Part shown: positions 2 through 27,609 of the stretch, piece by piece
How the letters are laid out: each line of letters opens with the position of its first letter
How positions within the stretch are numbered: position 1 is the first letter of the stretch
Assembly (NCBI RefSeq): GCF_000018105.1
Contig: NC_009925.1
Coordinates: 6,450,001 to 6,482,000, forward strand
Direction: 5' to 3'
DNA: 32,000 nucleotides
Source of the DNA: Acaryochloris marina MBIC11017
GTDB taxonomy: Bacteria; Cyanobacteriota; Cyanobacteriia; Thermosynechococcales; Thermosynechococcaceae
The notes under the pieces: model-generated
Seen by the model: the letters and a program-made list of their open reading frames with translations, nothing else
Told to the model about the DNA's origin: nothing
The model's database searches: none
Made by a program: the position numbers and the translations under genes

Positions 2-3000
2 TCCCCTGATGCCCAAGAGCGGCAAGCCAGTCGCCGCGCCTTTGAACAGGTCGCAACCCAAGAAGGCCACAAGGTTCTGGGTTGGCGAGACGTACCTACC
101 GATAATTCCTCCTTGGGTAACACGGCCAAGGCCAGCGAACCCTTTATGGAGCAGGTCTTTATCCAGTGCAGTCCTGATGTGAAGGATGATATGGCCTTTG
201 AGCGCAAACTATATGTGCTGCGCAAGTTGTCCCACAACGCCATTCGCCCCACAGGTATAGATGGACATTGGTATATCTCCAGTATGTCCTCCCGCACCAT
301 CGTCTATAAGGGCATGTTGATGCCCATCCAGGTGGGCCAATATTACCCCGACCTCCATGATCCTGATATGGAATCAGCTTTGGGATTAGTACACTCACGA
401 TTTAGCACCAATACCTTTCCAAGTTGGGATCGGGCTCACCCCTATCGCTACATTGCCCACAATGGTGAAATCAATACGATGCGGGGCAATATCAACTGGA
501 TGCTGGCTCGCCAGTCCATGTTTGAGTCGGAGCTATTTGGCGAAGATATGGCCAAAGTCCAGCCCGTGATTAACGTGGACGGCAGTGACTCCACCATTTT
601 CGATAACACGTTAGAGATGCTGTTTTTGGCGGGACGCTCCCTTCCCCATGCCGCCATGATGATGATTCCCGAACCTTGGACGGCCCATGAGTCCATGAGT
701 GCGGAGAAAAAAGCTTTTTATAAGTACCATTCCTGCTTGATGGAACCCTGGGATGGTCCAGCATCAATTTCCTTTACGGATGGCACCATGATTGGGGCGG
801 TTCTGGATCGGAATGGCTTGCGGCCCTCCCGCTATTACGTCACCAAAGATAACTTGGTGATTATGGCTTCAGAAGCTGGAGTGCTGCCCATTGAACCAGA
901 GCGAGTGGCGAAGAAAGGTCGTCTCACCCCTGGGCGGATGTTTGTGGTGGATATGAAGGAAGGCCGGATTATTTCTGACCAGGAACTGAAAGACCAGATT
1001 ATTTCTGAACATCCTTATCAGGACTGGCTGGATCAACAGATGGTGAGTGTTGAACAGCTCCCTGCAGCAGACGCTGCTCCCGAATATGATGCCAAGACCG
1101 TGCTGCAGCGGCAGATGGCCTTTGGCTACACCTTTGAAGAACTGCGAATGCTGATTGCCCCGATGGCCAATAACGGGGTAGAGGCGATTGGGGCCATGGG
1201 GACGGATACCCCCCTAGCGGTGCTTTCTAATAAGCCAAAGCTGCTGTACAACTACTTCCAGCAACTGTTTGCTCAGGTGACTAATCCCCCAATTGACTCG
1301 ATTCGGGAAGCGATTATTACCTCACCTGAAACCACGATTGGTTCCGAACGTAATTTACTGAAGCCAGAGCCAGAAAGCTGTCATCTTCTGGAGCTAAAAA
1401 CGCCTCTTCTGACTAATGCGGAGCTGGCCAAAATTAAGGCTCTCAACGGTGATCCGTTTAAGTCAGTAACCTTGCCGATTTTGTTTGATCCCAATGCTGG
1501 GGTGCAGGGCTTAGAAGCAGCCATGATGAGCATTTGTCAGCAGGCGGATGATGAGATCGCATCCGGTGCAAGTCTGATTGTACTTAGCGATCGCAACTTG
1601 GATCATGACCATGCCCCTATCCCTGCCTTATTGGCTGTCTCTGGACTGCATCACCATTTAATTAGGGAAGGAACCCGAACTCGGGTGGGTCTGGTATTGG
1701 AATCCGGTGAACCCCGAGAAGTTCATCATTATGCGGTTCTGATTGGCTATGGCTGCGGTGCCATCAATCCCTATGTCGCCTTTGAAACCATTCACGACAT
1801 GATTCACCAGGGGCTGATGGTGGACATTGATCCAAAAACGGCCTGTAAGAATTACATCAAGGCCGCCACTAAGGGCGTGATTAAAGTAGCCTCCAAGATC
1901 GGAATTTCCACCATTCAGAGCTATCGCGGCGCTCAAATATTTGAAGCCATTGGCCTGAATAAATCAGTAGTGGATAAATACTTTAGCTGGACGGCCTCTC
2001 GGATTGAGGGGGCAGATCTAGAAGTCCTAGCAGAAGAAGCGATTCAGCGCCATCGCCATGCCTTCCCTGAGCGGGATGTGGAAGTCCATACTTTGGATGT
2101 GGGGGGTGAATACCAGTGGCGAAAAGAAGGGGAAGCCCATTTATTTAGCCCTCAGGTGATTCATACCCTGCAGCAAGCTACCCGTGCCGGAGACTTTGAC
2201 CTGTTTAAGAAATACTCAGCCTTGGTAAATGAGCAAAATGAACAGCTGTTTACCCTGCGCGGTCTGCTGGAATTTAAAGATCGACAGCCCATTCCCATTG
2301 AGGAAGTGGAACCCGTCGAAGAAATTACCCGACGGTTTAAGACCGGGGCCATGAGCTATGGCTCCATTTCCAAAGAAGCCCATGAGTCCTTAGCCATTGC
2401 CATGAACCGTGTGGGCGGTAAGTCCAATACTGGAGAAGGCGGTGAAGATCCAGAACGCTTTACCTGGACAAATGACCAGGGCGACTCCAAAAACAGCGCC
2501 ATTAAACAGGTGGCCTCCGGTCGCTTTGGCGTTACCAGCCTCTACCTATCCCAGGCCAAAGAAATTCAAATCAAAATGGCCCAGGGGGCTAAGCCGGGAG
2601 AAGGTGGTCAGCTCCCCGGACGTAAGGTCTATCCTTGGATTGCTAAGGTGCGTCACTCTACTCCGGGCGTGGGCCTCATTTCTCCGCCGCCCCACCACGA
2701 TATCTACTCCATTGAAGACTTGGCAGAGCTGATTCACGATCTTAAAAACGCCAATCGGAGTGCTCGAATTAACGTCAAGCTCGTCTCAGAAGTAGGCGTG
2801 GGTACCATCGCCGCTGGAGTCGCCAAAGCCCATGCGGACGTGGTGCTTGTCTCTGGTTTTGACGGGGGTACGGGAGCCTCCCCTCAAACCTCCATCAAGC
2901 ATGCGGGTTTACCCTGGGAGCTGGGGATTGCCGAGACCCATCAAACTTTAGTGCTCAATAATCTGCGCAGCCGGATCGTCGTGGAAACGGATGGTCAGCT

Positions 3001-4291
3001 AAAGACAGGCCGGGATATTGTGATTGCGGCTCTCTTGGGAGCCGAAGAATTTGGTTTCTCCACTGCGCCCCTGGTCAGCCTAGGCTGCATTATGATGCGC
3101 GTTTGCCACCTCAACACTTGCCCCGTGGGCGTCGCTACCCAAGACCCACAGCTGCGGGAGAAATTCAACGGCGACCCTGCCTACACCGTCAACTTTATGA
3201 AGTTTATTGCCCAGGAAGTCCGGGAGCTAATGGCCCAATTGGGCTTCCGAACCCTGAATGAGATGGTGGGCCGTTCGGATGTCTTAGAACCGCGCCGGGC
3301 CATTAATCACTGGAAAGCCAAGGGGTTGGACTTCTCTAAAATTCTCTATCAGCCAGATGTTCCTGACGATATCGGTCGGTACTGTCAGATTCCCCAAGAT
3401 CATGGCCTAGAAAAGTCCCTGGATATGACCACCTTGCTGGATTTGTGCCAGCCTGCCATTGAGAAAGGTGAGAAAGTCAAAGCTACCTTGCCCATACAAA
3501 ACATTAACCGGGCGGTGGGGACCATTCTCGGCAACGAAATCACCAAGCGCCATTGGGAAGGACTGTCTGAGAACACAGTTCACCTGCATTTTCAGGGCAG
3601 TGCAGGACAAAGCTTTGGCGCCTTTGTACCCCCCGGTGTCACCCTGGAGCTTGAAGGCGACGCCAATGACTACTTTGGCAAAGGCCTTAGTGGTGGCAAG
3701 ATTATGCTTTATCCACCTAAGGAATCAACGTTTGTTGCTGAAGAAAATATTATCGTTGGCAATGTAGCCTTTTATGGGGCCACCAGCGGTGAAGCCTATA
3801 TTCGCGGCATTGCGGGAGAGCGATTCTGTGTCAGGAATTCCGGGGTGCGAGCAGTTGTTGAGGCCGTTGGCGACCATGCCTGTGAATATATGACGGGCGG
3901 CCAAGCCGTGATCCTAGGGCCTACAGGTCGTAACTTTGCTGCTGGTATGAGTGGTGGGGTGGCCTACGTTCTAGATGAGGCTGGAGATTTTGCCACCCGA
4001 TGCAATACGGAAATGGTGGGTCTAGAGTCCCTGGAGGATCCTGAAGATATCAAGGATCTGAAGGAGGTGATTCAGCGCCATGTGGACTATACCCAGAGCG
4101 AAAAGGGAGCTAGAGTTCTCGCAGATTGGGAGGCCATGGTGCCTAAGTTCGTGAAGGTGATGCCCCGAGATTATAAGCGAGTATTGCAGGCGATACAGAA
4201 TGCGATCGAGGATGGCTTGAGCGGAGATGATGCCTTGTCAGCAGCATTTGAGCAAAATGCTAAAGATGTCGCTCGAATTGGAGGAAGTTAG
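2..4291 (+). CDS. gltB: Glutamate synthase large subunit, ferredoxin-dependent type (Fd-GOGAT; GlsF/GltS); 5' end lies outside the window
   Basis: The frame of ORF 113..4291 stays open back to nt 2 ([43 protein letters not shown]...), so the N-terminus is left of the window. Hallmarks present: amidotransferase-domain PWDGPA, FMN-domain [16 protein letters not shown], the 3Fe-4S cysteine motif [21 protein letters not shown], and a C-terminal Gly-rich beta-helix domain. No gltD-like small-subunit gene follows, which fits the ferredoxin type. Confidence 0.95.
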
Positions 4292-4466: not shown

Positions 4467-4787
4467 TCATCTTGATCTTGAGGAGGTTAGAGGTACAAAG
4501 TTAATCGATAGTCGTTGATTGAGCGCTGTCGCAATCCGATTCAGCATTGCCAGGGAATGCCCCTCATAATCTGCATCCTCTAATCGACAAATTACAGATG
4601 CCTGCGTATCCACCAACGTAGCCAACTGTCGCTGCGTAAGATTCGCAGCTTCCCTCAACTCCCGAATCTTACGAGCCACATCATCATTCATCCGTGCGGC
4701 CTCTAGTTCGGCAATCCGCTCTGGCCGACCTTCGTATATGTCTTGATGTAAAATTTCTAACGCATTAGATATTTTCTTTTCAGGCAT
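4467..4787 (-). CDS. XRE-family helix-turn-helix antitoxin (HigA-like)
   Basis: 106 aa with an ATG start. The HTH core is LTQRQLATLVDTQASVICRLE. It starts 5 nt after the stop of the upstream toxin-like gene (4793). This is the toxin-first gene order typical of HigBA-type pairs. Confidence 0.8.
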   Translation of the reverse strand: MPEKKISNALEILHQDIYEGRPERIAELEAARMNDDVARKIRELREAANLTQRQLATLVDTQASVICRLEDADYEGHSLAMLNRIATALNQRLSINFVPLTSSRSR

Positions 4788-4792
4788 AGCGC

Positions 4793-5158
4793 TTACCTCT
4801 GATAGGTGTACTTGTCTGGGTCACTCTCAAAAAGAATTCGACGCTCAATAGCCTTGTCAATCTCTTTTGGTGGTACCCGCTTCTCTTTCACAATGCCGTG
4901 GGACAAAATTGCTGTGCACTCACCGTGAAAAAAATAGAGAATGCGATAGTTTATACCTTGCAATCCAACTCGTAGTTCATAAATCTTGTCTCGCAGATAA
5001 TCTGCCTCTGGTCGGCGCAATTCATGTCCTAGCGCAGCTAACCGTTCTATTTTAACCACGCATTTATCTTGAGCTTTGGGAGATAAACCTTTCAGCCAAT
5101 CTAATGTTGGAATAGAGCCATCTGTGTCCTGGAAGAAAACAACAATTGTTTGTGGCAA
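4793..5158 (-). CDS. RelE/HigB-superfamily toxin, phage Gp49-like (DUF891-type)
   Basis: 121 aa. The only in-frame start is TTG at 5158. The N-terminus (VFFQDTDGSIPTLDWLKGLSPKAQDK...IERLAALGHELRRPEADYLRDKIYELRV...YRILYFF) matches the Gp49-like killer-protein pattern as I recall it. It is tightly coupled to the XRE gene downstream. Confidence 0.75.
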   Translation of the reverse strand: MPQTIVVFFQDTDGSIPTLDWLKGLSPKAQDKCVVKIERLAALGHELRRPEADYLRDKIYELRVGLQGINYRILYFFHGECTAILSHGIVKEKRVPPKEIDKAIERRILFESDPDKYTYQR

Positions 5159-5205: not shown

Positions 5206-5446
5206 AAATATCAAATCCTTTAAAAAATCGGTACAGCTCATAGAGGTTAAATTTAAGTAGCACAACCTTAATGGAAAAGAATTTTAAAAACACTCTTGGT
5301 TGCTTACCGCAGAAACATTTCTATCGATATAGATTGAAATTTTCGAGTCTGAAGAATTCGATGTCAGTAAGAACAACTATTTCATTCTTGAAATATGTAA
5401 TCACTATTCCGTGATTTCTCTGTTCAATTCCTAGAGAAATGATCAG

Positions 5447-6250: not shown

Positions 6251-7546
6251 CTAGCGATAGTCCTGGCGTTGAATATCCATTAACCGAGCTTCAGGACGCT
6301 TAAATCGATCCAGTTGGGATTCAAAGAAATCGCGATTGGCTTGTAGATGTTGAGGGTCTTCGTCATCCAGGGGATAGAGTAGTGCCTGGCGGAGGGCCTG
6401 AATCACGGCTGAAGTGACACAATACATGGACCGCTGAAAGGTAATCCCCAGCTGAATTAGTGTATCGTCCTCACCTCGGCAATATTGTTGGTAATAGTCC
6501 ACCAAGTAGGGAGGAAGGAAATGGAGCATATCCTGCATCAGCAGGGTAGGCGGGATGCCAGCCGAGCCAACGGGAAACACATCGGCATAGAGAATACCGT
6601 AGTGGAAGTCTTCTTGGTTTTCTGGCACTTGCTTGGCTTGGGCATTGTAGGATTTCGTTCCTCGGAAAGGAGAGGTGCGATAGAACACCGCTTCTACATA
6701 GGGAAGGGCCGCTTCATAGAGCCACATAAACCCTTTGGATTTGGGGATAATTTCGTAGCATTCACCCCGAATATAGACATGATGATAAATGGGACGACCT
6801 GCGATCGCAAAGATACCATTCACCAAAAAGTTCATCGCTTCCGGCACCGACGTCAACTTGCCTTCATCGTAGAGATCCGACATCTCGAAAAAGACAGGAG
6901 CCATCACTTCCCAAAACAGTCCCAAGTTGGAGTAGTAGGAGAGCTGCCGCACCTGCTCTATAAACATATCGGGGAACAGCTTATACAGCCCCAGCATGAC
7001 TGGGTTGCCTTTGAAGTAAGCCTTAATCGCCCGATCGGCATTGGCGACATACTCATCCGTATCCAAATAGGGGTCAAACTGGCCTCCCATATTGCGATGC
7101 CAGAACATGGCTCGCATACAGGCTTCCGCAAATTCCATATTGATGCGGTCATGCCACAGGTGATGGAGTAGCTTAGGCAGCTTGCGCTTGACCTCACCCT
7201 TCTCCATAAATTCCAGCAATTCTGGATGAGCGGTGGCCTCACCTCGCCAGATCCGCAAATCGGCGTCATCCCCTGCATAGTGATTGTGCAGATCCAGGTA
7301 CTCTTTGGGTAAGAAATACTTGAAAAAAGGCAACGGTTCTAAGAACACCTGCTCAGCAATATAGAGCAAGTTGCGCCAGTAAAAATCCATCGGAACCGCA
7401 TAGGCTTTGTAAATCCCGATAATCTGCTTAAGATTTTCTGGCGTATCCGGTAGCATCGCCCCACCCGCTTCCAGGCGATGAATAATATCAGCAAATTGAT
7501 GCTGGGAAGGAGGGAGTTTGGTTGGTGTCGAAGTCGGGGCACTCAT
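6251..7546 (-). CDS. cupA: CO2 hydration protein CupA/ChpY of the NDH-1MS complex
   Basis: 431 aa with an ATG start. It is a ChpXY-family sequence (YKAYAVPMDFYWRNLLYIAEQVF...HHLWHDRINMEFAEACM...). It follows ndhD and ndhF paralogs. Its length and the cupS-like gene downstream favour CupA over CupB. Confidence 0.88.
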   Translation of the reverse strand: MSAPTSTPTKLPPSQHQFADIIHRLEAGGAMLPDTPENLKQIIGIYKAYAVPMDFYWRNLLYIAEQVFLEPLPFFKYFLPKEYLDLHNHYAGDDADLRIWRGEATAHPELLEFMEKGEVKRKLPKLLHHLWHDRINMEFAEACMRAMFWHRNMGGQFDPYLDTDEYVANADRAIKAYFKGNPVMLGLYKLFPDMFIEQVRQLSYYSNLGLFWEVMAPVFFEMSDLYDEGKLTSVPEAMNFLVNGIFAIAGRPIYHHVYIRGECYEIIPKSKGFMWLYEAALPYVEAVFYRTSPFRGTKSYNAQAKQVPENQEDFHYGILYADVFPVGSAGIPPTLLMQDMLHFLPPYLVDYYQQYCRGEDDTLIQLGITFQRSMYCVTSAVIQALRQALLYPLDDEDPQHLQANRDFFESQLDRFKRPEARLMDIQRQDYR

Positions 7547-7595
7547 AGGAATTGCGGATGACTAACAATAAATTAAGAGGGAAAGAAGGGGTGGA

Positions 7596-9143
7596 CTAAC
7601 TGAGGGAGGAAGAATCCCTAGTACTTAGCAGAGTGGGCGTCGGCTCAACTTCAACCATAAAGGTTTTAGGGGTTGGCGTAGAGAGATGGGCCTCAGCAAG
7701 GAGTGCTGCTGTTGTCGGTTCACTCCACCGCACCAACCAAGACGGTTGTAGTCCCAAAAAGATGATCAGTCCCATCAGCACTAGGGCTGGAATTCGCTCA
7801 TTCCACTGCACCTGTGGGTAATAGGCCGTGCTGCTATCGAGGCGACCAAAGCAAGTCCGGTTCAGCAAAATAACGAAATAGACCGCCGTCAATCCTGTTC
7901 CCACCACGCTCAATAGGGTCTGAATCGGGAAGGCAGTATAGCTGCCTTGGAAGACCAAAAACTCAGCGATAAATCCCACCAGTCCAGGAATTCCGGCACT
8001 GGCCATACCCGCCAGCACCAGGAGGGCGCTGACTAAGGGCAACCCTCGAACCGGGTTCATCAAACCATTGAGCACGTCTAAATCTCGCGTTCCTACCTTG
8101 GTCTCAATCAGTCCGACCAAGTGGAACAGCAATGCCAAGATTAACCCGTGGGCAAACATTTGGGAAATAGCACCCACCACACTCAGTTCGGTATGGGCTG
8201 CCGCAGCCAGAAGAATATAGCCCATATGTCCCACAGAACTGTAGGCCACCATCCGTTTGATGTCTTTTTGGGCGATCGCAGTCAACGAACCATACAGCAC
8301 ACTCACGACCCCCCAAGTCGCTAACACGGGGGATAAGGTTTGCCAAGCATCGGGGAAGAGGGGCATACAGAACCGGAAGATTCCGTAGGTGCCGAGTTTA
8401 GCCAGCACGCCTCCAAGCAGAATAGCCACGGGGGTAGAAGCCGCCACATAAGTATCGGGCAGCCAGGTATGCAAGGGGACTAGGGGAGTTTTAATGCCAA
8501 ATCCCAACAGCAACAGAATCAGGACCCCATACTGGAGATTGATCGGCAAATCCTGACCAAGTAAAACCTCGTAGGAAAAACTGCTGGCCTCACTAAACCA
8601 AATCACCCCTAAGAACCCCGCTAAAATCAGGCCCCCAGAGGTGGCAGTGTAGAGCAAGAACTTAGTGGCTGCACTACCCTGTTGGGCACTGCCCCAAATA
8701 GAAATCAGCAGATAAAACGGAATCAGCTCAATCTCGTAAAAGAGGAAGAACAGCAGCAAATTTTGAGCCAGAAACGCCCCCGCAACCCCGCCGTTGATCA
8801 GCAAAATCAGGGCGTAAAACAAACGAGGTCGTTTGGTTTCAACGCGGCTGCTATAAATCGCAATCCAGCAAAGCAGGCTATTGAGGACGATTAAAGGGAG
8901 TGATAGTCCATCTACCCCCAGTTGGTAGTCCAAACCCAAATCCGTTAGCCAGGATCGAGTCTCTTGAAACTGAAGGGCATTGTTACCCAAATCGAATTGA
9001 AACCCCACAGCTAACGTTAAGACCAGGATTGCCCCCGAGAGAAACAGGGCAGCCAGACGAACCTTACGACCCGTCACTTGCTGGGGTAGCAGGGCAACAA
9101 TGATGGCGGCAATACAGGGAAACCAAATCAGTACGCTGAGCAT
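7596..9143 (-). CDS. ndhD3: NAD(P)H-quinone oxidoreductase subunit D3 (NdhD3; Nqo13/NuoM-like antiporter subunit)
   Basis: A polytopic membrane protein with a typical NdhD N-terminus (MLSVLIWFPCIAAIIV) at ATG 9143. The ORF-track start at 9188 adds 15 atypical residues. It has a Ser/Thr/Pro-rich C-terminal tail. Operon context supports the D3 assignment. Confidence 0.88.
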   Translation of the reverse strand: MLSVLIWFPCIAAIIVALLPQQVTGRKVRLAALFLSGAILVLTLAVGFQFDLGNNALQFQETRSWLTDLGLDYQLGVDGLSLPLIVLNSLLCWIAIYSSRVETKRPRLFYALILLINGGVAGAFLAQNLLLFFLFYEIELIPFYLLISIWGSAQQGSAATKFLLYTATSGGLILAGFLGVIWFSEASSFSYEVLLGQDLPINLQYGVLILLLLGFGIKTPLVPLHTWLPDTYVAASTPVAILLGGVLAKLGTYGIFRFCMPLFPDAWQTLSPVLATWGVVSVLYGSLTAIAQKDIKRMVAYSSVGHMGYILLAAAAHTELSVVGAISQMFAHGLILALLFHLVGLIETKVGTRDLDVLNGLMNPVRGLPLVSALLVLAGMASAGIPGLVGFIAEFLVFQGSYTAFPIQTLLSVVGTGLTAVYFVILLNRTCFGRLDSSTAYYPQVQWNERIPALVLMGLIIFLGLQPSWLVRWSEPTTAALLAEAHLSTPTPKTFMVEVEPTPTLLSTRDSSSLS

Positions 9144-9215
9144 GAAACTTTCAGGTATTAAAAAAGACGGCAGGAGGCGCGAGGGCAAACAGAAGCAGAG
9201 GAATCAGTTGCAGGC

Positions 9216-11051
9216 TTAAAGCAAAGACCGCAGTAACAGCAGTGTAATAACGAACACCCCAGTGATAATGGTCAACAGATAGAACTGGGTTTGTCCGATG
9301 TTTCCATATTTCAGGACTTCACCAGTGGTGACAGAGGTACGGGCAATCCAGTTCACAACCCCATCTACCACTTTGCGATCCAGCCAATCCGTCAGACGAG
9401 AAATTCCATCAACGCCAGAAACAATGCTGGAACGATAGAGGGTCGGGGTATACATATCGAAGGCAAAGAAGTCTTGAACCGAAGTCCAAGGTAGGCGAAC
9501 TGGTTTGGAAAAACGATTCCCTACATAAATCAACGCCCCTAGACCACAACCCACCAAGCTAGACGCAGCCAGCAGAAACCCAGCTTCATGATTCAAAACC
9601 GACCAGTGGGGGAGGAGTTCCAGTTTTTGCAAAATGATCGGCAAATGCAATGTTGCACCCGCGAGGATGGTGGTCGGTAAGGTGATGGACCACAGATTTT
9701 CTGGCGATCGCACCGTCATTTGCTGACGCTCTCCGGCAAAGATCAAACCAAATTCTCGGATAATGCTAAATCCCGTTAAGGCATTGACGAGCAATACGAC
9801 CCCAACGAGGACTGGATGCTGAGTCCATAGCCCATCGATTAACTCTAAAAGCGCCCAAAACGTACCGAAGGGCGGTAACGCTACCAAGCCTACCGTGCCG
9901 ACAAGATAGCTCAGTCCAGAGATGGGACGACGGCTCCATAAGCCCCCCATCTGGGTTAGGTCTTGGGTGATGGTGTTGAGAATAATTGACCCTGTACTCA
10001 TAATCAGCAGGGACATGGATAGGGCATAGGTCAGCATCAACAGCAGTGCTGCATTGAGCTGTTGAGTCCCGACGGCGATAAATATCAGCCCCATATAAAC
10101 ACTGGCAGAGTAGGATAAGGCTCGCTTGATATCAATTTGTGCGATCGCAATCAAGGTACCGCCAATCGCCGTAATCGCCCCCACCGCAATCATGGTGGTT
10201 AAGGCAATGGGTGAAAGGCTAATCACCGGAGATAGCTTCAGAATCACCCAAGCCCCGGTAGATACCACCACGGAATTCCGCAGAATTGTCCCTGGGACGG
10301 GACCTTCCATTGCTTCATCAAGCCAGAGGTGCAGGGGAAATTGAGCACATTTGCCCATCGGACCTGCTACCAAACCCAGGCCCAGCCAAGTCATAACCGT
10401 TGGGTTAACCTGGGCAGTTTGCGCCCAGATCGCCATTTCCCGATAATCCCAAGTTCCCGCCAAAGGGAAGATGGCCAATACCCCCATCAACAGGAATAAA
10501 TCTCCGACCCGCTTGGTGAGAAAGGCATCCCGAGCCCCCGTGACTACCAGGGATTGGTTAAACCAAGTCCCCACAATCAGGTAAGTGGCCAAGGTCAAAA
10601 TTTCTAGAATAATGTAGCTAAAGAATAGGGAGTTGCAGAGGGCCAGGGAACACATCCCCGTTTCGAATAACGCCAGCAGGGCAAAGAAGCGCGCCCACCC
10701 CCAATCCATTTCCAGATAGCCAATGGCATAGAATTGCGTCAGCAAGTTAAGGCTCGTAATAACAATGCCTGCCCCTAGGGTGATAGAGGAAATTTCTAAG
10801 GGAATATCGAGGGTCAGTCCCGACACTTCCAACCAGGTGATATTGATGTACTGAGGGGGTTGGTTCCAAAAACTAGGGAAGGTGATCACGCCATGCAAAA
10901 AGGCACAGAAGGTCGTGACAATATTGACGTAACCGGCGGGGCGAGGTCCCGTCCGACGGATGATCGAGGGCGTCCACAGGAGGGAAATCACCATGCCGAT
11001 CAGAGGATAGCAAGGGATAAACCAAGCTGTTTGGATTAAAAACTGCAGCAC
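9216..11051 (-). CDS. ndhF3: NAD(P)H-quinone oxidoreductase subunit F3 (NdhF3; NuoL-like)
   Basis: 611 aa with a GTG start at 11051. It has an NdhF-type N-terminus (LQFLIQTAWFIPCYPLIG) and many TM helices. It is the first gene of the ndhF3-ndhD3-cupA-cupS arrangement. Confidence 0.88.
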   Translation of the reverse strand: MLQFLIQTAWFIPCYPLIGMVISLLWTPSIIRRTGPRPAGYVNIVTTFCAFLHGVITFPSFWNQPPQYINITWLEVSGLTLDIPLEISSITLGAGIVITSLNLLTQFYAIGYLEMDWGWARFFALLALFETGMCSLALCNSLFFSYIILEILTLATYLIVGTWFNQSLVVTGARDAFLTKRVGDLFLLMGVLAIFPLAGTWDYREMAIWAQTAQVNPTVMTWLGLGLVAGPMGKCAQFPLHLWLDEAMEGPVPGTILRNSVVVSTGAWVILKLSPVISLSPIALTTMIAVGAITAIGGTLIAIAQIDIKRALSYSASVYMGLIFIAVGTQQLNAALLLMLTYALSMSLLIMSTGSIILNTITQDLTQMGGLWSRRPISGLSYLVGTVGLVALPPFGTFWALLELIDGLWTQHPVLVGVVLLVNALTGFSIIREFGLIFAGERQQMTVRSPENLWSITLPTTILAGATLHLPIILQKLELLPHWSVLNHEAGFLLAASSLVGCGLGALIYVGNRFSKPVRLPWTSVQDFFAFDMYTPTLYRSSIVSGVDGISRLTDWLDRKVVDGVVNWIARTSVTTGEVLKYGNIGQTQFYLLTIITGVFVITLLLLRSLL

Positions 11052-11297: not shown

Positions 11298-12788
11298 TTA
11301 GACAACTGTTCCAAACTGAGAAGAGATGGGAAGCGTAATCGTAAAGGTAGAGCCCCTACCCGGCTGACTCTCCACGTCAATTTTGCCTCGGTGGGCTTTG
11401 GTAAAGGCTTTAACAATGGCAAGACCTAACCCTGAACCGTCCGACTGACGTTTACCCAATCGAGCAAACCGATCAAATATGCGGAGCTGTTCTTCTAGGG
11501 TCATACCTTCGCCGTTATCTTTGACCCAAAAAATAACCTGGGAAAACGTTTGCTTGCAGCCCAATTCAATCGTGCCAGAGGCTGGAGTATGCTGAGTGGC
11601 ATTCCTCAGTAAATTCAGCAGCGCTCCCGTTAATCGCTGGCGATCGCCCATCATGGAGCTAGAGCAGTTCAACTGCAGTTGCCAGTCTCGATCAGCCAAG
11701 GCTTGTGCTTTGGTAAACAGTTCGTCCATAAACTGGTTTAAATCAATCATTTCGTATTGAAGAAAATCAGGACGCTCTGATTTGGTCAGGGCAATCATGT
11801 CATTGACTAAGCGGCCCATCCGATCCAGTTCATCGAGAACCAGCTCAATGGTTTCCTCCTGTTCCTTGGGGTCATCTCCCATCAGTTCTAGATGGCCGCG
11901 AACAATTGTAATCGGGGTCCGCAGTTCATGACCCGCATCATTCACAAAGCGACGCTGACTGTTAAAGCTGTCTTGCAGTCGATCCATCATGGCATTAAAG
12001 ACTCTGGCTAAATCAGCCAATTCCCCTGAGCCTTCTGTTGATAATCGTTGAGTTAAATCGGATTCGTTGATGGAGCGGGCTGCGATCGCAAGTTCTCGCA
12101 CCGGCTTGAGTAACCGCCCTGTCACAAACCAGGCCAACAGCAGGGAGATTACAACGACGGCTCCCTCAATCAAAACAAAGGTATATACACTAGCTAAAGC
12201 TTCGTTCTGTTCACCAGCCGTAGCATGGGCAAGGACCATCACACCCATCTGCTCACTGTCTACGATGAGTGGTTCAGCTTTATAAATAATGGTGCCAATT
12301 TCAGGTAGATCCGTCGGTTCCTCTCCCCGTTCAAATTGGTTTAAACTCTCCCATTTTTCATAGAGGTTTGACCCTGGACGCATGGGCTTGAGTAACCGAG
12401 GTGGATTCGCGCGGTAAAAGTCTCCACCAATAATAAAAATAAAAAAATTGTCGTCTTCTGGGAGTTGATTGGCTAAGAAATCATCGGCGAACGTCTCCAA
12501 ATCTTCCACAGATTGATTCGGCTGACGTTCCCAGTTCATATAGGATTCATGAAAGATTTCATGCGCTTCAATCAAATCATTTCGCACCCGCAGAGACACC
12601 TGACTGGTAATAAGCGATTTATAGAGCGGTATGGCAAGCCCTGTGAATATCCCCAATAGCGAAATGTACAGCAACAGAATACGCGTCCGAGTTTGACGAA
12701 AGAACCGTCTGATCACTGAGCGCTGTCGCCGCCCCAAAGGGGAACGTTTGGAGTCAATCACGAAAGGTCCTCTTGATGATCGAGCCAT
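11298..12788 (-). CDS. Sensor histidine kinase (2 TM + periplasmic domain + HAMP + HisKA + HATPase_c)
   Basis: 496 aa with an ATG start. TM helices are ILLLYISLLGIFTGLAIPLY and YTFVLIEGAVVVISLLLAWFV. H-box: NDAGHELRTPIT. N-box: LLNLLRNATQHT. G-boxes: VKDNGEGM and GSGLGLAIV. The start codon lies 1 nt after the stop of the upstream porin-like gene. Confidence 0.9.
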   Translation of the reverse strand: MARSSRGPFVIDSKRSPLGRRQRSVIRRFFRQTRTRILLLYISLLGIFTGLAIPLYKSLITSQVSLRVRNDLIEAHEIFHESYMNWERQPNQSVEDLETFADDFLANQLPEDDNFFIFIIGGDFYRANPPRLLKPMRPGSNLYEKWESLNQFERGEEPTDLPEIGTIIYKAEPLIVDSEQMGVMVLAHATAGEQNEALASVYTFVLIEGAVVVISLLLAWFVTGRLLKPVRELAIAARSINESDLTQRLSTEGSGELADLARVFNAMMDRLQDSFNSQRRFVNDAGHELRTPITIVRGHLELMGDDPKEQEETIELVLDELDRMGRLVNDMIALTKSERPDFLQYEMIDLNQFMDELFTKAQALADRDWQLQLNCSSSMMGDRQRLTGALLNLLRNATQHTPASGTIELGCKQTFSQVIFWVKDNGEGMTLEEQLRIFDRFARLGKRQSDGSGLGLAIVKAFTKAHRGKIDVESQPGRGSTFTITLPISSQFGTVV

Positions 12789-16340: not shown

Positions 16341-16555
16341 AGTCTCCTCCAAGGAGTGATGGCTTATGTAGAGATAAAGCATTCCTTCCCCGAGCAATCC
16401 TCAATTAGCTTTTCTGAGAATCATGCAAATGGCTGGGGACTGGCAGATAGGTTCAGTTGTATGGGGATGAACGGAAAAAGTGAGCGTTATTCAGAACTCG
16501 GGTTGTCCCTTAGGGTCTATTGTTCAATTTGTCTTTCAAGGAAACGTGAAAGCGC

Positions 16556-16583
16556 CATGAGAAAACTTTCATCTTGAGGAGAG
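16556..16583. promoter_or_regulatory. Two 14-bp-phased CATGAGAA-type boxes upstream of GT2 paralog A
   Basis: The sequence is CATGAGAAAACTTTCATCTTGAGGAGAG, with the CAT trinucleotides at 16556 and 16570. It lies about 215 bp upstream of ATG 16340. It carries the same octamer and the same 14-bp phasing as the array at 26313..26382. Confidence 0.4.
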
Positions 16584-17536: not shown

Positions 17537-17857
17537 ATTCGTTAATCCTTGGATTTGTGAGGTTGAAACTGAAAATGGGTTGCTTGTAAAAAATGCTCAA
17601 GTAGAACTGCAGCAAAGCAATAGTTGTTCGAAATCTTGCAGCCTTCTTATGCTGCATTCAAACCTACTAGTCCCCAATTCTGTGGTGAGAAAACAGGATT
17701 CTGTTAATTCCCTTCTATGATGGGGACCAGTGCAAGAATTGTGTTGAGCCAATCTAGACAGAAGTCGTGGCTTAATTTATTGAATCGATACCCAACCAAA
17801 ATTTATTTAAAGAGGGAATTCACGCCAGTTTTTGTAAACGAGTCAATGGAGCCCCCG

Positions 17858-18055
17858 ATGCAAATTGTTGAAGCTGTATTTGATGGAGAAGTATTTCTTC
17901 CTGATGCTCCCCTAAATCTGCAAGAAGGGGCGCGGGTTCGAATTACAGTTGAATTAATTGAGAAACCTCAGATAAATGAATCTCCTTCGTTTCTTAAAAC
18001 AGCTCAATCTCTGCAATTAGAAGGGCCATCGAACTGGTCCGAACAAATCAATTAA
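17858..18055 (+). CDS. DUF104/AF2212-like antitoxin-family small protein (orphan, no adjacent toxin)
   Basis: I prefer the start at ATG 17858 (MQIVEAVFDGEVFLPDAPLNLQEGARVRITVE...), which is the typical N-terminus of this family (65 aa). The ORF-track start at 17717 adds 47 atypical residues, and ATG 17846 is also possible. Its stop overlaps the convergent GT2 stop by 4 nt. Confidence 0.55.
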   Translation: MQIVEAVFDGEVFLPDAPLNLQEGARVRITVELIEKPQINESPSFLKTAQSLQLEGPSNWSEQIN

Positions 18056-19227: not shown

Positions 19228-19371
19228 GGGTATAACCTTGAAATCGATGAGATGTAGCTATTGAGGATCTCCCCTCTTGGGAGGAATCAGGGGTAAGCGA
19301 ATCGGAATTCTAATGACCCGCCCTGCGGGTATCCTTCACAGGAGGGAAAAGTTCGATTTTGACGAAAGTCT

Positions 19372-21207
19372 CTAGGCGGAAAGAGTCTTAGGGGACAGAG
19401 TTGGTTGTTCAGGGTAGACGACTGACTGGAGCTGGAAGAGGGCTGCGTAATGCTGGCCTTGGTGCATCAGCTCTTGGTGGGTTCCTTGTTCTAGGACTTG
19501 TCCACCTTCGACATAGAGAATTTGGTCAAAGTCTTTGGAAACACTCAGATCATGGGTGATCAATAGGGTCGTGCTGCCTTGAGTTAGGCGTTTAAGGGCT
19601 TGATTGACGGCTTGCTCACTTTTATTGTCTAGACCCACCGTGGGTTCATCGAGAATAACGATAGGGGCTTTGCGGATGGCGGCGCGTGCGATCGCAACCC
19701 GTTGCCGCTGTCCTCCCGATAAAGTGGCTCCACGTTCACTCATGAGGGTGTTGTAGCCATCGGGTAAAGCCATGATGAACTCATGGGCATTGGCCAGCTT
19801 GGCGGCTCGACGCACCTCTGCATCTGTGGCCCCCAGAGAACCGTAGGCGATATTGTCGCGAATAGAGGTTCCAAATAAGATACTGTCTTGAAGAACAATG
19901 CTGATTTGATTCCGCAAGGAGTCCAGTTGATACCTGCGCAAATCTTGACCATCAATCAAAATTCGTCCTGAATGGGGGTCGTAGAGGCGAAGCAATAAGC
20001 TAACGAGGGTTGATTTACCACTGCCAGATGGACCGACTAGAGCGACTCTTTGGCCCGGTTTTACCTCGAAACTGAGGTTTTGGAGGGTGTCTTGATTGCC
20101 TTGATAGGCAAAGCTGACGTTCTCAAACTTTATGGTCCCTTGGAATGGGGGAGCTGCGATCGCATCTTTGGCATTGCGCACTTCTGGCTCTACATTGAGT
20201 AGGTCTATAATTCGCTCTGCAGATACGACACCGCGAGAGATTTTAGCCATTTGTTTTGCCAGTTCCCGCGTGGGTTTAAAGGCCGTTTTGAGATAGGTAA
20301 TAAAGACCAACAGATCCCCCGGAGACGCCTTATCTAGTTGAACCAAATACACCCCTCGCCACAACACCAATGCAGTGGCTATGGCAACCAAGATCTCAGC
20401 CGTTCGTTTTAAACCTGCCGAGAACTGTTGGGTGCGGGCACTTTCCTCTAAACTCTTGCGGTTGTCATGGACAAAGAGTTGCTCTAAAACTCGCTCCAGG
20501 GATAGGGCCTGGACAACCTTGATGGCACCAATGGACTCTGCAGCCGTCGCTGCCATTGCACTTTCACGACGACGTTGCCGCTGGGAAATTTTGCGAATGC
20601 GCTGGGTAATACTGACCGTTGAGAACATAAAAACCGGCAGCACTGCCAAGGCAATTAACGCCAGTTCCCAATCCATCCAGAACATCACCCCAACCATGCA
20701 GAATAGGGTAAAAATATTGATGAGTAAGGGCAGGGCATGGTTGATGATCACATCCCGTAGGCGATCCATATCGCTGGTGATGCGGGTGAGTAAGTCTCCA
20801 CTTTTAGCCTGGTAATGAAAGGCTAAGGACAGCCGTTGCAGATGACGATAGAGCTGACTGCGAATATCAGAAATCATTCTGCTCGCGGCCACTGAAAGAC
20901 TGACCAAGCTGATATAGGCAGACATGGCACTCAGTCCTGCCACTCCAACAATCGACAAGGCCAAAATCAAAATCAAAACGGAGGGATTAACCTCTCCCAG
21001 AACAGGAAGGTCCGTACTATTGGCATCGGGAAGCAATACATAGTCAAAGATCAGCTTGAGGGGCCAGGGACTTAACAGGCGGGCCAACACCTCAATCACT
21101 AAACCGATAATGGAAACTGAAAGTAGGGCTTTTTCTTGGCGGATCTGGGGCCAAAACTGGCGTATCACTTTGCCCAGACCTGGAAATATTTGGGTAGGTT
21201 GAGTCAT
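19372..21207 (-). CDS. Fused TMD-NBD ABC exporter (MsbA/type-IV exporter-like half transporter)
   Basis: 611 aa. It has an N-terminal six-helix TMD followed by an NBD. Walker A: GPSGSGKST. Q-loop present. Signature: LSGGQRQR. Walker B: IVILDEPT. H-loop: ITHDL. Confidence 0.9.
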   Translation of the reverse strand: MTQPTQIFPGLGKVIRQFWPQIRQEKALLSVSIIGLVIEVLARLLSPWPLKLIFDYVLLPDANSTDLPVLGEVNPSVLILILALSIVGVAGLSAMSAYISLVSLSVAASRMISDIRSQLYRHLQRLSLAFHYQAKSGDLLTRITSDMDRLRDVIINHALPLLINIFTLFCMVGVMFWMDWELALIALAVLPVFMFSTVSITQRIRKISQRQRRRESAMAATAAESIGAIKVVQALSLERVLEQLFVHDNRKSLEESARTQQFSAGLKRTAEILVAIATALVLWRGVYLVQLDKASPGDLLVFITYLKTAFKPTRELAKQMAKISRGVVSAERIIDLLNVEPEVRNAKDAIAAPPFQGTIKFENVSFAYQGNQDTLQNLSFEVKPGQRVALVGPSGSGKSTLVSLLLRLYDPHSGRILIDGQDLRRYQLDSLRNQISIVLQDSILFGTSIRDNIAYGSLGATDAEVRRAAKLANAHEFIMALPDGYNTLMSERGATLSGGQRQRVAIARAAIRKAPIVILDEPTVGLDNKSEQAVNQALKRLTQGSTTLLITHDLSVSKDFDQILYVEGGQVLEQGTHQELMHQGQHYAALFQLQSVVYPEQPTLSPKTLSA

Positions 21208-24907: not shown

Positions 24908-26107
24908 TTACGCCAAAGCCGGTTCTCGATCAGGGGGGCGAAGGAATAGGTTGGATAACTGATTCGCAATATTAGGTAAACCATTGAAATCGAGTTCTAA
25001 AGATGGGGCAGCTCGATCCTCTAGTTGGGCGATGACCGCTTGCATTAAGGATTTCGGCTGTAGATGATTGGGATGAATCGCCCGAATCAATCCGTTGTGC
25101 ATAAACCGTTCTGCCCGAATCAGCTGTTCCTGGGAAGGGGTAATTCGAGGAACCACAACTGTACGTTTGTCCAGAGCTAAGATTTCAGTCAAGGTGTTGT
25201 ATCCTCCCATGGAGACAACAGCATCCGCAGCATCTAAATAACCAATTAGATTGTCCGTAAATGCTTGAACTTCGACACCAGAGTATTGCAAGGCTTGTGT
25301 TTGGATATCCTGCTGCTGAGATAAGGGCATCTCTGGACCGCAGAGAATAACACTTCGGACCTTCACCTGATTTGGCAGGTATTTCAATCCTGCGAGGTAA
25401 GCTTTCACCAGAGGATAACCATCTTCTCCTCCACCTGGAGTCACTACCACCAACTTCTCTGAAGGCTTTATCCGCAGGAACCAGCGCAGTTCCATTCGAT
25501 TAAGCCCCTGAGAAGATTTACGTATATAGCCGCAATAATGGACCTTTTTCGCAATCGGTAATGGGAATTGGTACTCTTGAGCAACATCAAATAGCTCAGC
25601 CATACCTACCACTAGGACTTGGTCATACCAAGATTGGATCGCCTGGTAATATCCCTGTCGTTTCCATTCGCCAATCGTTTTAACAGGACTATCCAGAATA
25701 TCCCTAAGGAGAAGTACTTTTTGGGTCTTTGGTTGGTGAGTTTCAAGATGTTCTAGGGTGCTCAGTAATTCTTTCTGAATCCCATAGGGCTTTTTGTCAA
25801 CAAGCAACACATCTGGTTTAAAGTGCAGCGCGGCTGAATGAATTAAGTGGGAGCGCCACTTTAGAGTTTCTTCTAACTCTGTTCCCAAGTATTTTGCGAA
25901 TAAAGTTCCTGACTGTCCTCGATTAAGGCAAGGAAGTTTGATGTAATCCAAGCCTTTAGGTAGCCGAAAGGCCTGCAGCATCGGTGAACCAGATACCAGT
26001 AAAATAGATAGGTCTGTTTGGTCCTTCAGCAGGTATTCACAGATAGAAAGCATTCTGCGGAGATTGCCAAGACCGAATGCGTCATGAGAGTAAACCATCA
26101 GTCTCAT
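24908..26107 (-). CDS. MurG/GT28-like GT-B glycosyltransferase (COG4671-like), tandem paralog 3 (most divergent)
   Basis: 399 aa with SD GAGGA 9 nt upstream. Motifs: MRLMVYSHDAFGLGNLRR, LLLRDIL, PGGGEDG, ADAVVSMGGYNTLTEIL. It is the first gene of a tightly spaced five-gene run (gaps of 42, 17, 19 and 49 bp). Confidence 0.75.
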   Translation of the reverse strand: MRLMVYSHDAFGLGNLRRMLSICEYLLKDQTDLSILLVSGSPMLQAFRLPKGLDYIKLPCLNRGQSGTLFAKYLGTELEETLKWRSHLIHSAALHFKPDVLLVDKKPYGIQKELLSTLEHLETHQPKTQKVLLLRDILDSPVKTIGEWKRQGYYQAIQSWYDQVLVVGMAELFDVAQEYQFPLPIAKKVHYCGYIRKSSQGLNRMELRWFLRIKPSEKLVVVTPGGGEDGYPLVKAYLAGLKYLPNQVKVRSVILCGPEMPLSQQQDIQTQALQYSGVEVQAFTDNLIGYLDAADAVVSMGGYNTLTEILALDKRTVVVPRITPSQEQLIRAERFMHNGLIRAIHPNHLQPKSLMQAVIAQLEDRAAPSLELDFNGLPNIANQLSNLFLRPPDREPALA

Positions 26108-26153
26108 TGAACGGTCCTCAAAGAATTAGGTCAGTCGATAAAAGGGAATATAG

Positions 26154-26252
26154 TTAAACTGTTTGAAGCTGACGGTCTGATTTAATCTTTGGCAGGACTG
26201 GAGTTAGACGCCCTATTCCTACATATCCAGTACCAATTACACAAACTTTCAT
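26154..26252 (-). pseudogene. Remnant of a UDP-glucose 6-dehydrogenase-family gene (N-terminal Rossmann segment only)
   Basis: My own minus-strand translation gives MKVCVIGTGYVGIGRLTPVLPKIKSDRQLQTV*. The first 12 residues are the canonical Ugd N-terminus with GxGxxG, which I recall for cyanobacterial Ugd as M(R/K)VCVIGTGYVGLVTG. Similarity then collapses and a stop follows at codon 33. It ends 46 nt upstream of GT paralog 3. Confidence 0.35.
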
Positions 26253-26312
26253 AAATAATGAACCTCTCCTAACTGCGTTGTTCAGTTATCTACACCCTGA
26301 CAAGGCGGAGTT

Positions 26313-26382
26313 AAGGTTCAATGAAACTAATGTGAGAAAGGGTTCATGAGAACAGTTTCATGAGAAAGCTTTCATAGAAAGC
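26313..26382. repeat. Tandem array of five 14-bp units (consensus about GTTTCATGAGAAAG) in the leader/promoter region of the GT operon
   Basis: The units read on the + strand are: AAGGTTCAATGAAA / CTAATGTGAGAAAG / GGTTCATGAGAACA / GTTTCATGAGAAAG / CTTTCATAGAAAGC. TGAGAA (or its remnant) starts at 26333, 26347, 26361 and 26375, which is exact 14-bp phasing. The array lies 206-275 bp upstream of ATG 26107. Confidence 0.6.
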
Positions 26383-26455
26383 GTTTTAAGGGCTGGTTAA
26401 TATAACAACACCTCAACGTCTCACTGTTTTGAAGAACAAGAATAGATTGACAGAT

Positions 26456-26812
26456 TTATGAATCGGCGAGATGTCGCTGAATCGTTTCTATTAATTCAGA
26501 GAATTGAAATGGCTTACTGATAAAATCTGTAGCTCCAGAAGCCAAAGCCAACTCGTCTTGATCCACAAAAGCAGTAATTACAATAATCGGAACCGTAAAT
26601 CCCCGTTGACGTAAGGTTTGGAGTACGGTCCAACCACTGATAATAGGTAGCCCCAAATCCAACAACACAACATCAAACGCTTCCAGATTGGCTTGGTCCA
26701 ATGCCTGCTGACCATCAGTCACCAGTGTCGATTGATAGCCATGCTTGAGTAGTCCCTTTTCTACAAAACGGGCTATGCGCTCTTCATCTTCAACTAGGAG
26801 AACCCGCTTCAT
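26456..26812 (-). CDS. Single-domain (CheY-like) response regulator receiver
   Basis: I place the start at ATG 26812 (MKRVLLVEDEERIARFVEKGL...), giving 118 aa. The acidic pocket (EDE), the phospho-acceptor context (VVLLDLGLP) and the conserved SKPF are present. There is no output domain. The receiver resembles that of the adjacent OmpR-type regulator. Confidence 0.85.
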   Translation of the reverse strand: MKRVLLVEDEERIARFVEKGLLKHGYQSTLVTDGQQALDQANLEAFDVVLLDLGLPIISGWTVLQTLRQRGFTVPIIVITAFVDQDELALASGATDFISKPFQFSELIETIQRHLADS

Positions 26813-26909
26813 ATGGAATAGAAGTGATGCGTCAGTACCAATACTCCCTTTAGGCCGAAGCACTACAAAGTGTATTTATATGAAGCTAGCTCAAACAGCC
26901 CTTAAAGAA

Positions 26910-26927
26910 CATGAGAATCTTCTCATG
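26910..26927. promoter_or_regulatory. Perfect palindrome CATGAGAA-TC-TTCTCATG between the two response-regulator genes (operator and/or terminator hairpin)
   Basis: The arms are 8 bp with a 2-bp centre. It begins 14 nt downstream of the OmpR-type gene stop and lies 98 bp upstream of the receiver gene ATG. On the minus-strand RNA it would form a 7-bp stem with a 4-nt loop followed by UUCUUUAA. It shares the CATGAGAA octamer with the array at 26313..26382. Confidence 0.5.
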
Positions 26928-26940
26928 CAGTAAATTGGAC

Positions 26941-27609
26941 CTAAGTCTTTAACCGATACCCAACCCCACGAACGGTTTCAATAAGTGAGTTGCCGAGCTT
27001 CTTGCGCAAATAGCCAACGTAAACATCAACGATATTGGAACCAGGATCATAGTCATATCCCCAGACCCGATCCAAGAGTTGCTGCCGACTGAGGACCTGC
27101 CCAGGGTGACGGAAAAATGTTTCTGCCAGAATAAACTCTCTGGCTGGCAGTTCGATCCATTGATCATCCACTTTGGCCTTACGAGTACGCAGATCTAGCA
27201 CCACATTATGGGCCGTCATTGTCATCGTCTCAGGAGGAGTGCCAATAGACACTGTTCTCAGTCGAACTCTAACCCTTGCCAATAACTCTTCAAACCGGAA
27301 CGGCTTTGTCATATAGTCGTCCGCTCCTCCTTCAAGTCCAGAGATTTTATCTTGAATATCATCTCTGGCGGTCAAAATGATGACAGGGAGTACAGAACCT
27401 TGACCTCTCAAATCAGCTAAAACTTCTAGCCCATCTCTTCCGGGTAATCCCAAATCTAGTATCAGTAGCTCAAACCCATCACTTAAAGCGAAGGATAAGG
27501 CTTCATGGGCATTTTCTACCGTAGTCGTAGCGTATCCGTGGCTCTTTAAACCTTTCTCTATAAAGGATGCAATTCTAGGTTCATCCTCTGCGATCAGAAT
27601 ATGTGCCAT
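26941..27609 (-). CDS. OmpR/PhoB-family DNA-binding response regulator
   Basis: I place the start at ATG 27609 (MAHILIAEDEPRIASFIEKGL...). It has a receiver domain (LLILDLGLPGRDG, TKPF) and a winged-helix output domain (LPAREFILAETFFRHPGQVLSRQQLLDRVWGYDYDPGSNIVDVYVGYLRKKL...VRGVGYRL). Confidence 0.9.
   Translation of the reverse strand: MAHILIAEDEPRIASFIEKGLKSHGYATTTVENAHEALSFALSDGFELLILDLGLPGRDGLEVLADLRGQGSVLPVIILTARDDIQDKISGLEGGADDYMTKPFRFEELLARVRVRLRTVSIGTPPETMTMTAHNVVLDLRTRKAKVDDQWIELPAREFILAETFFRHPGQVLSRQQLLDRVWGYDYDPGSNIVDVYVGYLRKKLGNSLIETVRGVGYRLKT

Follow-up and report, generated by a model that had tools for sequence, protein, structure and literature searches.

A repeat array upstream of a glycosyltransferase cluster in Acaryochloris marina is probably the composite operator of a conserved cyanobacterial two-component system

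An array of short repeats precedes a glycosyltransferase (GT) operon of Acaryochloris marina MBIC11017, which raises the question of whether the array is an operator and, if so, which protein binds it. The original prediction, made on the 32,000-nt stretch analysed here (the window), described a direct repeat with a 14-bp period and placed it as a promoter-proximal site for an OmpR/PhoB-family regulator encoded upstream. We compared the array with orthologous cyanobacterial loci and with characterised bacterial operators.

Anatomy of the array

The genes here are all on the minus strand, so the sense form of the unit is TTCTCATGAA and the array is read from 26380 to 26311. In this direction there are four long units of the TTCTCATGAA type at 14-bp steps, followed by two shorter TTCA-type half-sites at 11 and 10 bp (TTTCTATGAAagc TTTCTCATGAAactg TTCTCATGAAccct TTCTCACATTag TTTCATtgaac CTTAAC). 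The step series is 14, 14, 14, 11 and 10 bp (window chain 14, 14, 11). The elements are:

26311–26382, minus strand: whole candidate operator array, in sense order U0 (degenerate), U1, U2, U3, TTTCAT, CTTAA
26357–26366, minus strand: unit U1, TTCTCATGAA, with the maximum PWM score (16.6)
26343–26352, minus strand: unit U2, TTCTCATGAA, missing in the Acaryochloris relative L007
26329–26338, minus strand: unit U3, TTCTCACATT, from sequence reading
26321–26326, minus strand: short half-site TTTCAT, 11 bp from U3, from sequence reading
26360–26375, minus strand: box 1, ATGAAAGCTTTCTCAT, two mismatches to ATGAGAANNTTCTCAT, composed of the degenerate inverted half-site U0 and of U1
26346–26361, minus strand: box 2, ATGAAACTGTTCTCAT, two mismatches, overlapping box 1 by 2 bp

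All positions given in the original prediction were correct: the decamer TTCATGAGAA lies at 26343–26352 and 26357–26366, the TGAGAA core at 26333, 26347 and 26361, and the copy lacking one base, TAGAA, at 26375. The claim of 14-bp phasing holds for the first three steps but breaks down at the last two (11 and 10 bp), so the period is not uniform. Nor is a pure direct repeat the basic element; the array is built from a palindromic box that is extended by direct half-sites. A supposed related palindrome at 26248–26262 proved to be the spacer and start codon of a relic ugd gene, with no palindrome in the orthologues L005 and L007.

Tandem Repeats Finder independently reported 26333–26382 (period 14, 3.6 copies, 84% matches, score 63). 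One pair of ATGAGAANNTTCTCAT boxes (≤3 mismatches) exactly 14 bp apart occurs in the real array and none in 200 shuffles of the window. The octamer CATGAGAA is weakly enriched in the window (5 observed versus 1.6 expected; at least 5 in 3 of 100 shuffles). This count alone being weak, the significance of the array comes from clustering and conservation. The ABC exporter gene has another tandem repeat of the window at its 3' end (19367–19401; 15-bp period, 2.2 copies, score 49).

A near-palindromic box is conserved upstream of orthologous operons

We collected 80 orthologous loci, one genome per species, using as the query the first glycosyltransferase (50–88% identity):

24908–26107, minus strand: first GT28_C-type glycosyltransferase of the candidate regulated operon, assigned by domain matches

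Boxes were counted in the 450 nt preceding the first operon gene (ugd if present, otherwise the first glycosyltransferase, GT1) in 79 loci and compared with shuffled controls. The core shared by the loci is a near-palindromic box, TTnATGAGAA-NN-TTCTCATnAA. With up to three mismatches it is found in 74 of the 79 loci (shuffle mean 3.9), with up to two in 57 (shuffle mean 0.4) and with at most one in 36 (shuffle mean 0). Loci with the box span Acaryochloris, Thermosynechococcaceae, Leptolyngbya-like cyanobacteria, Microcoleus, Pleurocapsales and Nostocales. Box density reaches 2.95 per kb in the 450-nt upstream region versus 0.14 per kb elsewhere in the loci.

Two outcomes had been named beforehand as fatal to the prediction, lack of conservation in orthologous upstream regions and a random distribution. 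The first is contradicted by the box counts and the second, within the orthologous loci, by the box densities. In the Acaryochloris clade alignment fails upstream of the array, and conservation runs from the array down to the start codon; hence, the repeats form the upstream edge of a constrained promoter region. We conclude that the array is very probably a functional and conserved operator.

Origin of the 14-bp step

Across the orthologous loci, half-sites (yTCAy) downstream of the box follow one another at steps of almost exclusively 11 bp (n = 109) or 14 bp (n = 30), 139 steps of exactly these lengths in total. The 11-bp steps have the consensus TTCTCATaAAAtTTCAT, that is, TTCTCAT-aAAA-tTTCAT, a 7-bp core with an A-rich spacer. 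The 14-bp steps have the consensus TTCTCATGAAnnnnTTCTCAT, or TTCTCATGAA-nnnn-TTCTCAT, with a G after TCAT in 28 of the 30. Direct half-sites extend toward the operon only. The pattern of a box followed by half-sites at +11 and +22 occurs in 41 loci, and at least one 14-bp step precedes the 11-bp steps in 20. The window belongs to the latter group, as do all its closest relatives (Acaryochloris, Thermosynechococcaceae and several marine metagenome-assembled genomes, MAGs).

TCATGA is itself palindromic, and each 14-bp junction therefore remakes a weak box, ATGAAnn-NN-TTCTCAT, in which the left half retains ATGAA only. The 14-bp period is thus that of a 16-bp box minus the 2 bp by which it overlaps its neighbour. 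Unit number differs among Acaryochloris strains: L007 has three, and the window and strains of the CCMEE 5410 type have four. Since U2 is the unit missing in L007, it represents a 14-bp gain. A. marina NIES-2412 carries an independent 19-bp duplication. Such variation between close strains indicates that units are gained and lost by tandem duplication.

In the marine MAG locus L011, three TTCTCATCAT units at exact 14-bp steps (5269–5306) lie between GT1 and GT2, and a second full operator (2404–2439) precedes a gene for a protein with a C-terminal receiver domain.

Target cluster and candidate promoter

On the minus strand the locus runs from acylphosphatase through the regulator (27609–26941), the receiver-only gene (26812–26456) and a 348-bp gap to three GT28_C genes, and continues with GT4, an MsbA/HepA-like ABC exporter, GT2 genes, an aldo-keto reductase, a histidine phosphatase, an OprB-type porin and the kinase. 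The array had been placed in the gap between the receiver-only gene and the first GT, which is correct as to position and length (26108–26455). The same gap, however, holds a gene relic:

26151–26252, minus strand: ugd (UDP-glucose 6-dehydrogenase) relic of 33 codons with an AGGAG ribosome-binding site, the first cistron downstream of the array

It is thus this relic, and not the first GT gene, that directly follows the array. The relic consists of the first 12 ugd codons joined in frame to the last ~20, the deletion having fallen between two TATGTGGG repeats. A full ugd occupies this position in the Acaryochloris loci L005, L007 and L095. Independent decay of ugd is seen in the Acaryochloris MAG locus L006 (about 2990–3200) and in the Fischerella contig L099 (7444–7749), whose sister contig L100 has ugd intact.

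Two hexamers upstream of the relic may form a weak promoter:

26309–26314, minus strand: putative −35-like hexamer TTAACT (TTCACT in L005–L007)
26287–26292, minus strand: putative −10-like hexamer TAGATA, invariant in the window and L005–L007, with a 16-nt spacer

Neither hexamer was called in a consensus promoter scan of the window. In Nostocales the last half-site ends 10–13 nt ahead of a TATATA-like hexamer.

Several other features were noted in the window. A small AF2212-like/PIN module of the toxin–antitoxin type (17717–18055, plus strand) sits inside the glycosyltransferase cluster and varies between otherwise identical strains (L001 15021–15660 versus L002 14984–15181). A Gp49-like/HTH pair (4467–5158, minus strand) is also toxin–antitoxin-like. 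Adjoining the kinase is an ndhF3-ndhD3-chpY-like operon (6251–11051, minus strand) with two NDH-1 antiporter-type subunits and a ChpXY CO2-hydration protein.

Further boxes in the window and elsewhere

Within the 32 kb there are four boxes with up to two mismatches, all intergenic and all inside this cluster. Besides the two in the array, they are:

26911–26926, minus strand: site 2, a perfect box ATGAGAAGATTCTCAT, 14 nt past the regulator stop codon and 98 nt before the receiver-only start
16546–16572, minus strand: site 3, box ATGAAAGTTTTCTCAT with two mismatches (box at 16557–16572) and TTTCAC at +11

Site 3 follows the aldo-keto reductase stop codon and precedes a GT2 gene, a position that suggests an internal regulated promoter. 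A box that follows or overlaps the regulator stop codon, as site 2 does by following it, was found in 17 of about 31 assessable loci and accompanies the presence of the receiver-only gene. Overlap with the stop codon is frequent because ATGAGAA contains TGA. For example, in L009 (1621), L018 (813), L023 (1370), L025 (2802) and others the TGA stop of the regulator lies within the left box half (A-TGA-GAA), so the gene end and the next operator overlap. In Cyanothece, a box with one mismatch is found at the 5' end of a kinase–regulator operon, on a contig without GT genes.

An inverted similarity of about 35 nt (AACCAGCCCTTAAA ... ATGAAAGCTTTCTCATG; 26359–26398 versus 26893–26927) flanks the receiver-only gene. 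Site 2 with its flank resembles the upstream edge of the array copied in inverse orientation, in CCMEE 5410-like strains only.

Linked regulator, receiver-only protein and kinase

Three signalling genes of the window are associated with the box:

26941–27609, minus strand: OmpR/PhoB-family response regulator with receiver and Trans_reg_C domains, the candidate binder (domain match, synteny)
26456–26812, minus strand: receiver-only response regulator, with site 2 before it and the array after it
11298–12788, minus strand: HAMP-HisKA-HATPase histidine kinase, orthologue of the kinase that adjoins the box in relatives

In most loci the regulator (orthologues 61–90% identical) and the receiver-only gene are within 4 kb of the operon. 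Kinase orthologues (45–58% identical) occur in over 40 loci; in about 33 of these the kinase gene and the operon diverge, and the box lies between the two. Among the orthologous loci the box is syntenic with no further DNA-binding protein. On the other side, 33 of the 80 loci have the box while kinase, regulator and receiver-only genes are all undetected in the flank covered (≤4 kb).

We compared the proteins with curated NCBIfam models, and no equivalog for the regulator, the kinase or the GTs scored above its cut-off. The best match of the regulator is the heavy-metal CusRS/CopRS model TIGR01387 (189.6 bits, below the cut-off of 279.2), only ~10 bits above its PmrA and PhoB matches; the PhoB equivalog gives 178 bits (cut-off 296). 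The kinase matches best the heavy-metal model TIGR01386 (214.1 bits, below the cut-off of 292.55). Homologues of the regulator have generic or automatic names only, e.g. QseB and CusR. Its sequence is 99% identical to an Acaryochloris CCMEE 5410 protein and the locus is arranged as in L086, which places the window in a strain very close to CCMEE 5410.

A paralogue of the regulator, 82% identical, is found in L091–L094 (Logan SRR296940xx, samples that also contain the window) in an operon with a kinase, and the neighbours of this pair look mobile (MT-A70, DUF5131, DUF6283). No box was found near the paralogous regulator–kinase pair in L091–L094. Cross-talk of the paralogue with the operator is possible.

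Comparative evidence, namely the box in 74 of 79 loci and its synteny with regulator, receiver-only gene and kinase, thus supports the original prediction of a promoter-proximal site for the OmpR/PhoB regulator encoded upstream. It is likely that the adjacent regulator binds the array.

Comparison with known operators

CusRS is a copper/silver two-component system, and the CusR box is an activator site. In E. coli this box (ATGACAAnnTTGTCAT; AAAATGACAAnnTTGTCATTTT) lies between the divergent cusRS and cusCFBA operons (PMC11195947). The box described here has the same 7-bp inverted half-sites with an exact NN spacer (ATGAGAA/TTCTCAT versus ATGACAA/TTGTCAT for CusR), identical at 12 of 14 core positions, and in both the flanks carry the palindrome on. 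In many relatives the box is likewise situated between a divergent kinase (or kinase–regulator) operon and the target operon, the regulon is apparently small and local, and regulator and kinase score best against heavy-metal subfamily models. However, the two proteins stay under the curated subfamily cut-offs, and each half-site differs at its central base (G in place of C and C in place of G; TGACAA/TTGTCA there, TGAGAA/TTCTCA here). The box is also extended by direct half-sites at 11 and 14 bp, for which there is no mention in the case of the CusR box in PMC11195947. Moreover, the targets are the ugd relic, three GT28_C genes, GT4, the ABC exporter, GT2 and the OprB-type porin, with no metal genes, and the kinase in the window is 13 kb off, at the far end of the cluster.

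A second NN-spaced palindrome, ATTCATnnATGTAAT, is bound by the OmpR-family regulators CusR/CopR/CzcR of Pseudomonas in a divergent intergenic region, is common to several paralogous regulators and controls metal-resistance genes (PMC11195947). The NN-spaced palindrome and its setting are alike; the half-site sequence and orientation and the metal-resistance targets differ. By analogy, the sharing of ATTCATnnATGTAAT by paralogues may be relevant here, given the 82%-identical Acaryochloris paralogue.

The 11-bp part of the operator has another counterpart, with which it shares the protein family. Its steps (TTCTCAT-aAAA-tTTCAT) resemble the Pho box of PhoB, which consists of 11-bp direct repeats, each a 7-bp core with a 4-bp A/T-rich spacer, and replaces the −35 element. 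In PhoB-type activation the box ends ~10 bp before the −10 element; the sites described here reach to ~10–13 nt before a −10-like hexamer in Nostocales. The differences are the core (TTCTCAT versus CTGTCAT in the Pho box), the extra inverted half-site upstream, the 14-bp steps interposed in the clade of the window, and a regulator that is no PhoB equivalog.

Features expected of an OmpR/PhoB operator include tandem direct half-sites at ~10–11 bp and a linked cognate regulator. Across the loci 109 of the 139 steps are 11 bp, and the regulator at 26941–27609 is linked, with orthologues syntenic in most loci. One feature expected of a CusR-type site, an NN palindrome of 7-bp half-sites, is perfect at site 2 and present with at most one mismatch in 36 of 79 loci.

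Cyanobacterial sites of other kinds were considered by inspection. The published consensuses are a TTACA repeat for RpaB HLR1 and GTAN8TAC for NtcA. The consensus TTnATGAGAAnnTTCTCATnAA has neither a TTACA repeat nor GTA-N8-TAC, and spacing and key bases differ from the CRP/NtcA-type geometry. The motif had been called unrecognised. This stands as far as HLR1 and NtcA are concerned, but the geometry is that of the CusR box and the 11-bp part is Pho-box-like. Searches of open-access literature text for the motif (strings of the TTCTCATGAA, TTCTCATGAGAA and GAGAANNTTCTC type) returned primers and unrelated matches only, and no description of a cyanobacterial regulator–ugd–GT system was found there. 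Sub-cut-off scores and non-metal targets together indicate a system that resembles the CusR and PhoB operators and is a member of neither family. Overall, this is apparently a previously undescribed operator of an uncharacterised cyanobacterial two-component system.

Proposed mechanism and alternative explanations

The best explanation, and in our view a likely one, sees in the array a composite operator through which the adjacent regulator acts, probably as an activator. It would be the main operator of a three-part module of histidine kinase, OmpR/PhoB-family regulator and receiver-only regulator. The ancestral element would be the near-palindromic box, to which direct yTCAy half-sites are appended on the operon side as far as a weak promoter. 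Once phosphorylated, the regulator would occupy the box and half-sites, bring in RNA polymerase and switch on the ugd/glycosyltransferase/ABC-exporter cluster. In the lineage of the window, extra long units (TTCTCATGAAnnnn) would have been added by 14-bp tandem duplication, their junctions serving as weak overlapping boxes. Site 2 would make expression of the receiver-only protein dependent on phosphorylation, as a feedback or phosphate-sink arm, and site 3 would drive the downstream GT2 gene. The 33 box-bearing loci without module genes in the flank, the paralogue without a box, the sub-cut-off heavy-metal match of the regulator with its narrow margin over PmrA and PhoB, and the weak hexamers count against this explanation. 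A further point against a regulator–operator reading is the 14-bp step, which is atypical for OmpR/PhoB tandem binding, where the step is usually 10–11 bp, and whose junctions retain no more of the left half than ATGAA.

Some of these observations would suit a real, conserved operator that is bound by a different, unlinked transcription factor. Loci in which no module gene accompanies the box are what such a binder predicts; helix-turn-helix dimers use palindromic boxes more often than OmpR-family regulators do, and the 14-bp step is unusual for the latter. We nevertheless regard an unlinked binder as unlikely. Regulator, kinase and receiver-only protein are the sole regulators syntenic with the box across orders, boxes adjoin the regulator's own stop codon, and in Cyanothece the box precedes the kinase–regulator operon on a contig devoid of GT genes. 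Direct steps of 11 bp, with their A-rich spacer, are an OmpR/PhoB signature, and the palindrome itself is no obstacle, as CusR-type regulators bind NN-spaced palindromes (PMC11195947).

If the linked regulator is the binder, the sign of its effect has to be considered. Multiple tandem sites could occlude the promoter, site 2 directly after a gene could be a roadblock, and the promoter positions are themselves putative hexamers, so that the regulator might repress or act as a roadblock. However, the half-sites are placed ahead of the putative −35 region and reach up to it, and good −35 hexamers are missing, as in PhoB-type activation; the CusR box, which is the nearest analogue, serves activation. 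Repression therefore appears improbable to us, and from the arrangement of the sites we lean slightly towards activation of the operon by the bound regulator.

Action of the repeats as RNA, either as hairpins in a 5' leader or as intrinsic terminators after the regulator and receiver-only genes, is very unlikely. It is true that the array folds better than shuffles (z = −3.2), that GCUUUC-UAU-GAAAGC followed by UUUCUC is terminator-like, and that site 2 forms an 8-bp hairpin followed by UUCUUU. In 77 boxes, however, paired substitutions that would preserve the stem are essentially lacking, A·C mismatches occur often (19 of them at pair 5), and conservation is far stronger in the right arm than in the left. 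Boxes of relatives are followed by an A-rich tract, with no conserved U-tract, and the box is often in a divergent promoter region without an upstream co-oriented gene; a hairpin would also need a longer loop than NN. No Rfam family matched, either in the whole window at the gathering threshold or in 26050–27000 with E relaxed to 1. Pair statistics and genomic context thus largely refute a hairpin or terminator.

A neutral, functionless replication-slippage repeat would explain the differing unit numbers of L007, the window and NIES-2412, but is ruled out for practical purposes: 74 of 79 loci, from different orders, share this sequence in this position, amid flanking intergenic DNA that is unconserved.

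Returning to the composite operator bound by the adjacent regulator, one could further imagine a hybrid in which a single OmpR-family regulator is forced into two dimer geometries on one promoter, one symmetric, on the NN palindrome, and one head-to-tail, on the repeats of 11 bp. In such a hybrid the 14-bp step would be a conserved register shift, with ~120 degrees between successive dimers around the helix, and slippage gain and loss of units, as among the Acaryochloris strains, would provide an evolvable gain control on polysaccharide production. This idea is speculative and we consider it doubtful.

Biological significance

The analysis reveals no new kind of mechanism; the switch proposed here is of a kind familiar in bacteria. 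Its interest is that a widespread, uncharacterised cyanobacterial signalling module (kinase, OmpR-type regulator and receiver-only protein) becomes tied to a defined DNA motif and, moreover, to a defined target, the ugd/glycosyltransferase/ABC-exporter/porin cluster, whose product is presumably a uronic-acid-containing surface glycan. The module yields testable operator sequences and a predicted feedback arm through the receiver-only gene. In addition, the natural series of 11- and 14-bp spacings offers material for studying the tolerance of OmpR-family dimers to shifts of register.
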